In this document: one piece after another, positions 13,696-13,751 of the stretch
Numbering within the stretch: the first letter of the stretch is position 1
Layout: each line of letters opens with the position of its first letter
From: Escherichia phage ECO26.1 3-1
Reading direction: 5' to 3' (one strand)
DNA: 51,807 nt
Sequence record: OR844578
The notes under the pieces: generated by a model
What the model was told of the DNA's origin: nothing
What the model saw: only the letters and a program-made list of their open reading frames with translations
Databases searched by the model: none
Translations under genes and position numbers: made by a program

Positions 13696-13724
13696 GTTTA
13701 CAAGGTCTATGGTTATGTTATTAT
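13696..13724 (+). promoter_or_regulatory. early promoter GTTTAC-17-TATTAT within inverted repeat; 3' block tgttattatagacctatcaactactggag duplicated at 46690
   Basis: -35 13696-13701; -10 13719-13724; arms aggtctat/atagacct. Confidence 0.6.
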
Positions 13725-13751
13725 AGACCTATCAACTACTGGAGGTAAAAC

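Follow-up and report, generated by a model that had tools for sequence, protein, structure and literature searches.

The stretch of DNA analysed here, called the window in the following, comprises 51,807 nucleotides of Escherichia phage ECO26.1 3-1 (sequence record OR844578), and its subject is a family of early-type promoters, many of which carry an inverted repeat around the -10 hexamer. A 4-kb sample of the window is 99.2% identical to Escherichia phage moskry, and about 100 other Mosigvirus genomes (RB69-group, T4-like) match it at 95-96% identity. Judged by its sequence, the window is that of a T4-like Mosigvirus of the RB69-group. All genes of the window are located on the plus strand, as are all features described below, and by homology to the annotated phage SA79RD they span the region from near e and denV over regB, vs, tk, the nrdC cluster, 49, nrdD/G, 55, 47, 46, 45, 44, 62, regA, 43, uvsX, and 41 to gene 61.

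Promoter family and cassette architecture

The pattern GTTTAC-N16-18-TATNNT is found 14 times in the whole window compared to 0.8 expected matches, and 13 of the 14 are on the coding strand. The orthologous sites in SA79RD are annotated as T4-early-like promoters, and a TG-extended -10 hexamer is common. For the statistics, 19 gene-proximal early-type sites were assembled, and start sites were predicted from the position of the -10 hexamer in the whole analysis. The elements are intergenic, and the Shine-Dalgarno (SD) sequence and start codon of the downstream gene are located at their 3' ends. They usually begin right at the stop codon of the preceding gene, which lies -1 to +4 nt from the -35 hexamer at 12 of the 19 sites, and the distance from stop codon to ATG is 56-67 nt at 12 sites. 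The 25 nt upstream of the cassettes contain 69% A+T compared to 63% window-wide (p = 0.003), with A being enriched (p = 0.002). Just after the -10 hexamer most cassettes contain the predicted start region CCTATCAA (..CTATCAA..), which is kept across genera and also in cassettes without hairpin, and which is probably part of the "additional consensus" of the T4 early promoters. The latter belong to the sigma70 type, are very strong, contain additional conserved regions, and within minutes they are shut off (PMC2988021). Each element can be described as a compact cassette for gene regulation in a T4-like phage, in which a strong host-sigma70 early promoter (GTTTAC, TG-extended -10) follows an A-rich stretch and precedes the start region and the SD and ATG of an early gene. 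The elements are promoter-early stem-loop (PeSL) cassettes of the T4-like phages, here from the RB69-group.

The three largest families of dispersed direct repeats in the window consist of these cassettes. The core replication block from 24.8 to 46.2 kb (21.5 kb; genes 55, 47, 46, 45, 44, 62, regA, 43, uvsX, and 41) does not contain any cassette (P = 4e-5 under uniform placement). GGAG, the target motif of RegB, is found in the SD sequences of 8 of the 19 cassette genes but only in 13% of all genes of the window.

Two classes of hairpins

To measure the arms, the -35/spacer part of a cassette was compared to its -10-to-ATG part and the longest perfectly complementary stretch was taken, and P values were obtained from spacer shuffles. 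At eight sites (1790, 5403, 9056, 9505, 13696, 24397, 46236, and 46670) perfect arms of 7-14 bp bracket the -10 hexamer, each with P <= 0.04, and the arms at 23269, 24696, and 48195 are 6 bp long or interrupted. Including an inverted repeat at 25593, a stem-loop overlaps or adjoins the promoter at about 12 of 20 sites. The preliminary description had reported at least 14 promoters with the -10 hexamer inside an inverted repeat. The repeats exist and are more frequent than expected by chance, but their number was overestimated, since no repeat brackets the -10 hexamer at 8 of the 19 gene-proximal sites (2531, 12220, 16354, 17334, 18771, 23971, 47454, and 47884). The GTTTAC pattern had also been assigned too broadly, because 25593 has TGCTTT in the -35 region, so that it is not an early-type promoter by that pattern, and both 24397 and 24696 have variant -35 hexamers. 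The folds of the cassette hairpins have z-scores of -2 to -5.4. A chance origin was ruled out by shuffles and by swapped-arm and slid-register controls. A known RNA family could also be ruled out, given that Rfam did not give a match anywhere in the window.

Each cassette was folded twice, as a long read-through RNA and as a short RNA beginning 7 nt after the -10 hexamer. The hairpins fall into two classes, of which class A comprises 1790, 5403, 9056, 23269, 46670, and weakly 46236, and class B comprises 9505, 13696, 24397, 24696, 48195, and also the repeat at 25593. In class A, the 5' arm is located at the start of the spacer, typically reading GTTTAC-WT-CTCC..., and the 3' arm is the SD. The predicted probability of the SD to be unpaired is 0.00 in the long RNA compared to 0.52-0.91 in the short RNA at the first five sites. 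In class B, the end of the spacer forms the 5' arm, and the 3' arm extends from the -10 hexamer to about the predicted start (..CCTATCAA). The -10 hexamer is part of the loop, and the SD is free to the same extent in the long and the short RNA. Class B 5' arms often read GATAGG because the start region is conserved. The preliminary description had proposed that the hairpin pairs the SD in read-through RNA, and that transcripts from the internal promoter lack the 5' arm. According to the folding this applies to five to six class A sites but not to class B.

One class A cassette is at 46670-46727, where TTCTCCAGTAGTTG (46676-46689) pairs with CAACTACTGGAGAA (46707-46720) in a 14-bp stem that covers the SD, with the ATG at 46725. 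The fold has -21.9 kcal/mol (z = -4.87), none of 200 shuffles was as stable, and the SD is unpaired with a probability of 0.00 in the read-through RNA and of 0.68 in the cassette's own transcript, which is unstructured. The cassette at 5403-5462 belongs to regB (PHROG: endoribonuclease) and is orthologous to a documented T4 early promoter (PMC3014915). Its 14-bp stem of TTCTCCTCTAGTTG (5409-5422) and CAACTAGAGGAGAA (5440-5453) covers the GGAG SD (-23.2 kcal/mol, z = -4.15; SD unpaired 0.00 in the long RNA versus 0.91 in the own transcript), and the upstream stop codon TAG overlaps the -35 hexamer. At the denV cassette (1790-1849) TTCCTCCAAG (1796-1805) pairs with CTTGGAGGAA (1834-1843), and at 9056-9114 TTCTCCTC (9062-9069) pairs with GAGGAGAA (9100-9107), the SD being unpaired with 0.00 versus 0.52 and 0.00 versus 0.76, respectively. 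A terminator-like hairpin with a T-run is found upstream of the 9056 cassette. The cassette at 23269-23328 (-10 hexamer TAAGAT) has a two-part stem consisting of TCCTC (23276-23280) with GAGGA (23314-23318) and TAGATG (23283-23288) with CATCTA (23303-23308), a z-score of -2.55, and an SD that is unpaired with 0.00 versus 0.68. The weak member at 46236-46297 has a stem of TTCCTCT (46245-46251) and AGAGGAA (46282-46288) that closes the SD only in part (0.45), and the terminator-like sequence GGAGACTTCGGTCTCCTTT is located upstream.

Within class B, the cassette at 9505-9565 has a stem of TTGATAGGAC (9514-9523) and GTCCTATCAA (9536-9545) with the -10 hexamer TATAGT in the loop and the SD free (-20.3 kcal/mol, z = -3.17). 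The cassette at 24397-24459, which has one of the variant -35 hexamers, pairs ACGATAGGAAGA (24403-24414) with TCTTCCTATCGT (24425-24436; z = -4.10). Two further members are weak, 24696-24765 with the -35 hexamer GTATAC and a stem of GAGAGA (24710-24715) with TCTCTC (24726-24731), and 48195-48256 upstream of a spackle-like gene with a stem of GGACTA (48210-48215) and TAGTCC (48224-48229) plus an interrupted extension (z = -2.08). The inverted repeat at 25593-25660 upstream of the gene 55 homolog pairs ATAGGTCT (25602-25609) with AGACCTAT (25629-25636) over 8 bp around TATAAT (25623-25628), with a fold of -17.1 kcal/mol (z = -2.10).

Of the 19 spacers, 6 contain an anti-SD tetramer (CTCC or CCTC), compared to 4.1% of random 18-mers (p = 8e-5), and in 25 of 36 cases found among 164 distinct spacers from related phages it is located at one fixed spacer position. 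If the short RNA starts at -22, matching the predicted start, an SD that is closed in the long and open in the short RNA is found for 6 of the 19 cassette genes but only for 4 of 80 other genes (p = 0.003). Gene 49, one of these four, served as positive control.

The site at 13696 and the shared 29-bp block

The cassette singled out in the preliminary description, 13696-13754, belongs to class B and is located upstream of an nrdC.8-like gene. Its -35 hexamer GTTTAC is at 13696-13701, the -10 hexamer TATTAT at 13719-13724, and the ATG at 13752. The stem of AGGTCTAT (13703-13710) and ATAGACCT (13723-13730) extends to 11 bp with two G·U pairs, and the minimum free energy of the fold is -16.7 kcal/mol (z = -2.07). 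The SD GGAGG (13740-13744) is outside the stem and is unpaired with a probability of 0.63 in long and short RNA alike; the proposed pairing of the SD therefore does not hold for the very site at which it had been suggested. The orthologs in another genus have the same 3' block together with a class A 5' arm (CTCCAGTAG pairing CTACTGGAG), and T4-like phages have a different class A pair at the orthologous position, GTTCCTCTGT with ACGGAGGAAC. Among the orthologs compared, the class B arm at this locus is restricted to the Mosigvirus lineage.

The 29-bp block TGTTATTATAGACCTATCAACTACTGGAG is exactly identical at 13716-13744 and 46690-46718, as had been described, and does not have a match in 100 shuffles. 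The close variants reported near 5421-5450 and 12238-12257 were also recovered, as a copy with three mismatches at 5423-5451 and a sub-block of 19-20 nt at 12238-12257, respectively. Gene duplication as source of the block was ruled out, because the two exact copies are followed by genes for unrelated proteins (E = 1.9) from different PHROG families. A mobile block present in many contexts was ruled out as well, since public viral contigs contain exact copies only at the same two orthologous loci. For both reasons the block is best read, from these comparisons, as a conserved promoter core plus 5' leader and not as a duplicated gene start or widely mobile element. It has probably been homogenised or exchanged between cassettes. 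At 5403, 13696, and 46670 the Mosigviruses have TGT-TATTAT and another genus (L013/L014/L019/L022) has TGA-TACTAT, and the paralogs of one genome agree with each other at those positions against their own orthologs. This suggests concerted evolution by gene conversion or lineage-specific selection on the promoter.

Evolutionary maintenance of the stems

For the evolutionary analysis, 218 distinct cassettes were collected from the window and 60-odd related loci. The 5' and 3' halves of the same cassette pair at -10.9 kcal/mol compared to -8.0 kcal/mol for swapped halves (permutation p <= 2e-4). In 94 unselected ungapped cassettes with an 18-nt spacer, 48.2% of the cells in the class B register are paired compared to 43.2 ± 1.1 in shuffles, and the covariation score is 0.232 compared to 0.176 ± 0.013. 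None of 500 shuffles reaches the pairing or covariation value, and every slid register scores lower.

The regB leaders of at least seven lineages including T4, down to 56% protein identity, all have a stem of -16 to -25 kcal/mol that covers the SD. The inner part of this stem varies between TCTAGTTG/CAACTAGA, TCTTGACTG/CAGTTAAGA, TGTAG/CTACA, TCTTTATG/CATAAAGA, and TGTAAG/CTTACA. In the regB leaders of a distant T4-like lineage (L080/L081) both stem types are nested in one cassette, the outer being TTTCCTT/AAGGAGA (SD) and the inner GGGCCAT/ATGGCCC around the -10 hexamer. The stem GAGAGA/TCTCTC of the 24696 cassette corresponds to GGGACC/GGTCCC (or GGTCC(C)) in L013/L014 from another genus, at the same place and behind the same spacer prefix, which is a compensatory change of several bases. 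Depending on the Mosigvirus, orthologs of the 9505 cassette have A-U, G·U, or G-C pairs. Both classes also occur in T4, where nrdC.8 carries a class A stem of 13 bp and mobD.2 a class B stem of 15 bp, each with about -23 kcal/mol. Internal mismatches of the stems are G·T more often than A·C (10:3 and 13:5), while composition alone predicts a ratio of 0.78. Because of the compensatory changes among paralogs and orthologs and because of the G·U excess, the alignments point, with modest support, to the stems being maintained as sense-strand RNA structure rather than as DNA.

Proposed mechanism

We propose that the elements are early-promoter cassettes with RNA hairpins of two classes encoded in the promoter spacer, and assign a probability of about 0.7 to this explanation. 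The sequence of the 17-18 nt spacer is not recognised by RNA polymerase, and in about 60% of the cassettes the phage would use it to encode the 5' arm of a hairpin. The predicted start is downstream of this arm, and therefore the hairpin would form only in RNA begun at an upstream promoter. In class A, the spacer arm would pair with the SD, so that the read-through RNA would be closed to ribosomes at that gene and its GGAG might also be shielded from the RegB nuclease, while the cassette's own short transcript would be open. Synthesis of the protein would therefore mainly depend on its own immediate-early promoter, or otherwise take place only if the base of the stem is melted by a ribosome that terminates a few bases upstream. 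In class B, the arm would pair with the sequence just after the -10 hexamer and leave the SD free, and our best guess is an attenuator or a barrier to decay or processing in the read-through RNA. The long identical blocks might act as short homology patches, through which a cassette-bounded gene is occasionally gained or lost. The geometry of the sequences, the statistics, the folding predictions, and the compensatory changes are the observations from which we infer where the transcripts start, how translation is affected, whether RegB is kept off, and what class B does.

Several points weigh against this explanation. The hairpin is not needed for promoter function, as about 8 of the 19 cassettes do not have one. 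The contrast between closed and open SD depends on the true start and is already reduced to p = 0.13 if the short RNA begins at -24; a fixed truncation at -27 gave a weak contrast of 3 of 19 versus 3 of 80 genes (p = 0.08). Initiation, translation, and RNA structure in this phage are predictions, with the start sites placed from the -10 hexamer alone. The cassettes at other loci were collected by pattern and some of them are probably not promoters. With p of about 0.05, the G·U excess is modest. Because the register of the arms differs between lineages, a MAFFT/RNAalifold consensus of the regB leaders captured the SD/anti-SD base of the stem but not its remainder. The T4 RefSeq record does not contain promoter features, and a literature search did not reveal a start-site map for T4-type phages.

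More tentatively, the early-promoter spacer might be a programmable antisense arm in many immediate-early genes of the Tevenvirinae, including T4 regB and nrdC.8. The anti-SD at a fixed position would tie translation and the exposure of GGAG to RegB to the promoter of origin, and the class B arm would mask the start region. If true, such a promoter-of-origin switch would result in a sharp pulse of immediate-early expression.

Alternative explanations

The class A hairpin could be a device for translational coupling instead of an off-switch, in which a ribosome that has reached the end of the upstream gene on the read-through RNA opens the stem at its SD/anti-SD base and re-initiates. At 1790, 5403, and 46670 the end of the upstream stop codon and the 5' arm are separated by 5-7 nt, the stem begins with exactly the pairs TTCTCC:GGAGAA, and the abutment of stop codon and -35 hexamer at 12 of the 19 cassettes would suit such a device. 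At 9056, 23269, and 46236, however, the distance from the end of the upstream gene is 29-108 nt, and a terminator intervenes in two cases, so that coupling is impossible there, and stems of 10-14 bp would only partly be opened by a terminating ribosome. We regard coupling as doubtful, although it is the least unlikely of the alternatives.

It is less likely that the cassettes are primarily recombination sites at the DNA level, shuffled as proposed for PeSL elements and perhaps recognised by a structure-specific protein, with the effects on RNA being incidental. Mini-circles that result from recombination between PeSLs have been demonstrated in RB49/phi1 (PMC2839356), and the preliminary description had likened the elements to PeSL recombination hotspots. 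We compared the window to 29 related loci, taking those with at least 94% identity as close relatives. Two accessory open reading frames (ORFs), each with a cassette on either side, are present in some relatives and absent from others. The 79-aa ORF at 24457-24696 between the cassettes 24397 and 24696 is missing from L013/L014, which have a single cassette, and the 124-aa ORF at 46295-46669 between the cassettes 46236 and 46670 is missing from 16 relatives (L018-L033) with one cassette there. Replacements at 5109-5399 and 11853-12227 and a deletion at 47227-47431 end at or just before a -35 hexamer, further indels or replacements at cassettes are found at 24386-24733 and 46265-46785, and homology resumes at or a few bases before the -35 hexamer after several replacements (5396, 9505, 12227, 23269, 46663, 47431, and 48195). 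The cassette at 13696 looks chimeric, with a class B 5' half and a 3' half identical to 46670, while the orthologs of another genus have the class A arm on the same block.

Among the close relatives, 5 of 44 distinct breakpoint ends are in cassette zones, which make up 3.6% of the bases (p = 0.02). Compared to other gene junctions, however, the cassette junctions are not enriched in breakpoints of close relatives (odds ratio (OR) 1.45, p = 0.34), only the right ends of all relatives come close (OR 2.66, p = 0.055), and cassettes are not involved in 17 of the 22 indel events that were counted for close relatives. The excess of right over left ends in cassettes (17 versus 6) fits equally well to a promoter that travels with its downstream gene. 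Exchange by homology needs identity but not complementary arms, and thus the compensatory changes and the G·U bias would be left unexplained. In addition, the exact 29-bp block is confined to its two orthologous loci in public viral contigs. The elements are thus of the PeSL kind, but their reading as recombination hotspots is only weakly supported in this window.

About equally unlikely is that the stem-loops are terminators or attenuators for upstream RNA that insulate each early gene, as put forward by the authors of the PeSL papers. The stem-loop of one RB49 PeSL lowered downstream lacZ expression about like a strong terminator (PMC2839356), prediction programs called two of the orthologous hairpins in SA79RD terminators, and the hairpins are located exactly at gene boundaries. 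On the other side, a T-run is absent downstream of every cassette hairpin, by which intrinsic terminators were ruled out, and a scan of positions 1-20000 does not call any of them although it finds true terminators just upstream of the 12220 cassette and elsewhere. A terminator would not need stems that target the SD from a fixed spacer position, and the loops of 10-28 nt are long for intrinsic terminators. Loops of this size also disfavour the extrusion of cruciforms. It is very improbable that the repeats are palindromic operators or cruciform targets of a protein acting on early promoters, possibly in the early shut-off of T4, because, although they are centred on the -10 hexamer and the shut-off mechanism has been described as not completely understood (PMC3014915), the arms diverge widely between sites and lineages with complementarity kept and thus do not share a recognition sequence, nearly half of the promoters do not have a repeat, and the G·U bias points to RNA.

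Comparison to known systems

PeSLs have been described in RB49/phi1 (Arbiol 2010, PMC2839356) and in PST/T4 and nt-1/KVP40 (Comeau 2014, PMC4122927). The cassettes of the window share with them the AT-rich upstream region, the sigma70-type early promoter, the stem-loop at or next to it, and the SD and ATG of a small gene. The promoters match the PST/T4 consensus TTTACW-N17-TAYWAT (Comeau 2014, PMC4122927). The elements are likewise concentrated in variable regions and absent from the core replication block, and some of the ORFs flanked by them differ between close relatives. In the PeSL papers the stem-loop is a terminator or attenuator and a target of recombination, whereas the stems found here are without T-runs and belong to two precise classes, one of which is directed at the SD. 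The PST/T4 stems have been drawn just upstream of the promoter, whereas here they bracket the -10 hexamer. Both classes of the window show clear compensatory evolution, and the association with breakpoints is not significant at the level of junctions. The text of Arbiol 2010 (PMC2839356) does not contain the words translation, ribosome, sequest-, covari-, or compensat-, and the PeSL papers do not mention RB69 and do not cover RB69-group phages. What is added here, an RB69-group instance and a mechanistic refinement (two stem classes and a predicted SD switch at early promoters), is moderately interesting. A promoter-of-origin switch of translation is not mentioned in the PeSL papers or in the consulted reviews on post-transcriptional control in T4, while an earlier description of SD pairing at early promoters is possible.

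In T4, the genes e, soc, 49, and I-TevI are controlled by stems that sequester the ribosome binding site in combination with internal late promoters, and segB and Aeh1 mobE are further examples of such hairpins (PMC3014915, PMC2988022). Class A appears to share the device: the RNA from the upstream promoter folds the SD, and the RNA from the internal promoter, which does not have the 5' arm, would be translatable. The similarity is limited to class A, with the SD in a helix at 1790, 5403, 9056, 23269, and 46670 but not at 13696, 9505, 24397, and 48195. The start of the own transcript is located between the arms if it is about 7 nt after the -10 hexamer, and the contrast is sensitive to a shift of 2 nt. 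In the T4 genes the internal promoter is late and expression is delayed, whereas the promoters here are of the early sigma70 type and would restrict expression to the earliest minutes. In addition, the T4 cases are one-offs, whereas class A seems to be a repeated stereotyped design with the anti-SD at a fixed spacer position in front of many genes. The gene 49 homolog of the window (endonuclease VII, ATG 19471) has the classic arrangement of T4 gene 49 at 19430-19475, with the late-promoter-like sequence TAATAAATA and a stem ACCCTTATC...AAGGTAAGGGT enclosing the SD.

RegB cuts unpaired GGAG in the SDs of T4 early genes and is blocked by secondary structure of the RNA (PMC3014915). The enrichment of GGAG at the cassette genes, with regB itself located behind a class A cassette, agrees with this target, and by analogy class A might protect the read-through RNA from RegB.

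PeSL cassettes have been proposed to drive the shuffling of genes in T4-like phages, a group that is widely used in phage therapy and as a model. In the 52-kb region most indels do not involve cassettes, which tempers the label of a recombination hotspot, and the stem-loops seem to be kept as sense-strand RNA structures beyond their role as homology patches. If the switch proposed for class A holds true, it would link the translation of early genes to the promoter of origin, account for part of the immediate-early pulse, and connect it to RegB. It would also provide simple designs for synthetic phage gene cassettes.

Further cassettes and neighbouring features

The cassette at 12220-12289 has the -35 hexamer GTGTAC and shares the core ATGTTATTATAGACCTATC (12239-12257) with the 29-bp block family but does not form a significant hairpin, and a terminator-like hairpin (12184-12200) is located upstream. 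Early-type cassettes without hairpin across the -10 hexamer are exemplified by 2531-2593, with 16354, 17334, 18771, 23971, 47454, and 47884 being similar.

Instead of the cassettes and the 79-aa ORF found at 24386-24733 of the window, the close relative L009 has an intrinsic terminator, GGGCTTCGGCCCTTTTT, at 18438-18461. The same junction can therefore be occupied by either promoter cassettes or a terminator. In three relatives a clean deletion of 410 bp (7263-7674) extends across two adjacent 75-aa ORFs (7255-7482 and 7458-7685) without involving a cassette, and looks like recombination between tandem paralogs. Insertions of 600-1400 bp are found in relatives at 10860, 21775, 28463, 30379, 39105, and 43882, inside or between core genes; judged only by size and position, these are presumably free-standing homing endonuclease genes.

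The 40-nt leader (..AATGAGTAAAATAT.ATG) at 24420-24459 in the 24397 cassette is 80% identical to 43189-43228 upstream of uvsX, and the similar sequence ATGAGTAAA is also present in the 12220 cassette. Tandem paralogous genes that encode about 320 aa each (14339-17362) are preceded by promoter regions at 15330-15372 and 16350-16392 with 86% identity to each other. Both regions contain a small hairpin, AACCA/TGGTT, wholly within the spacer, which represents a third placement of the stem in which the -10 hexamer is not bracketed.

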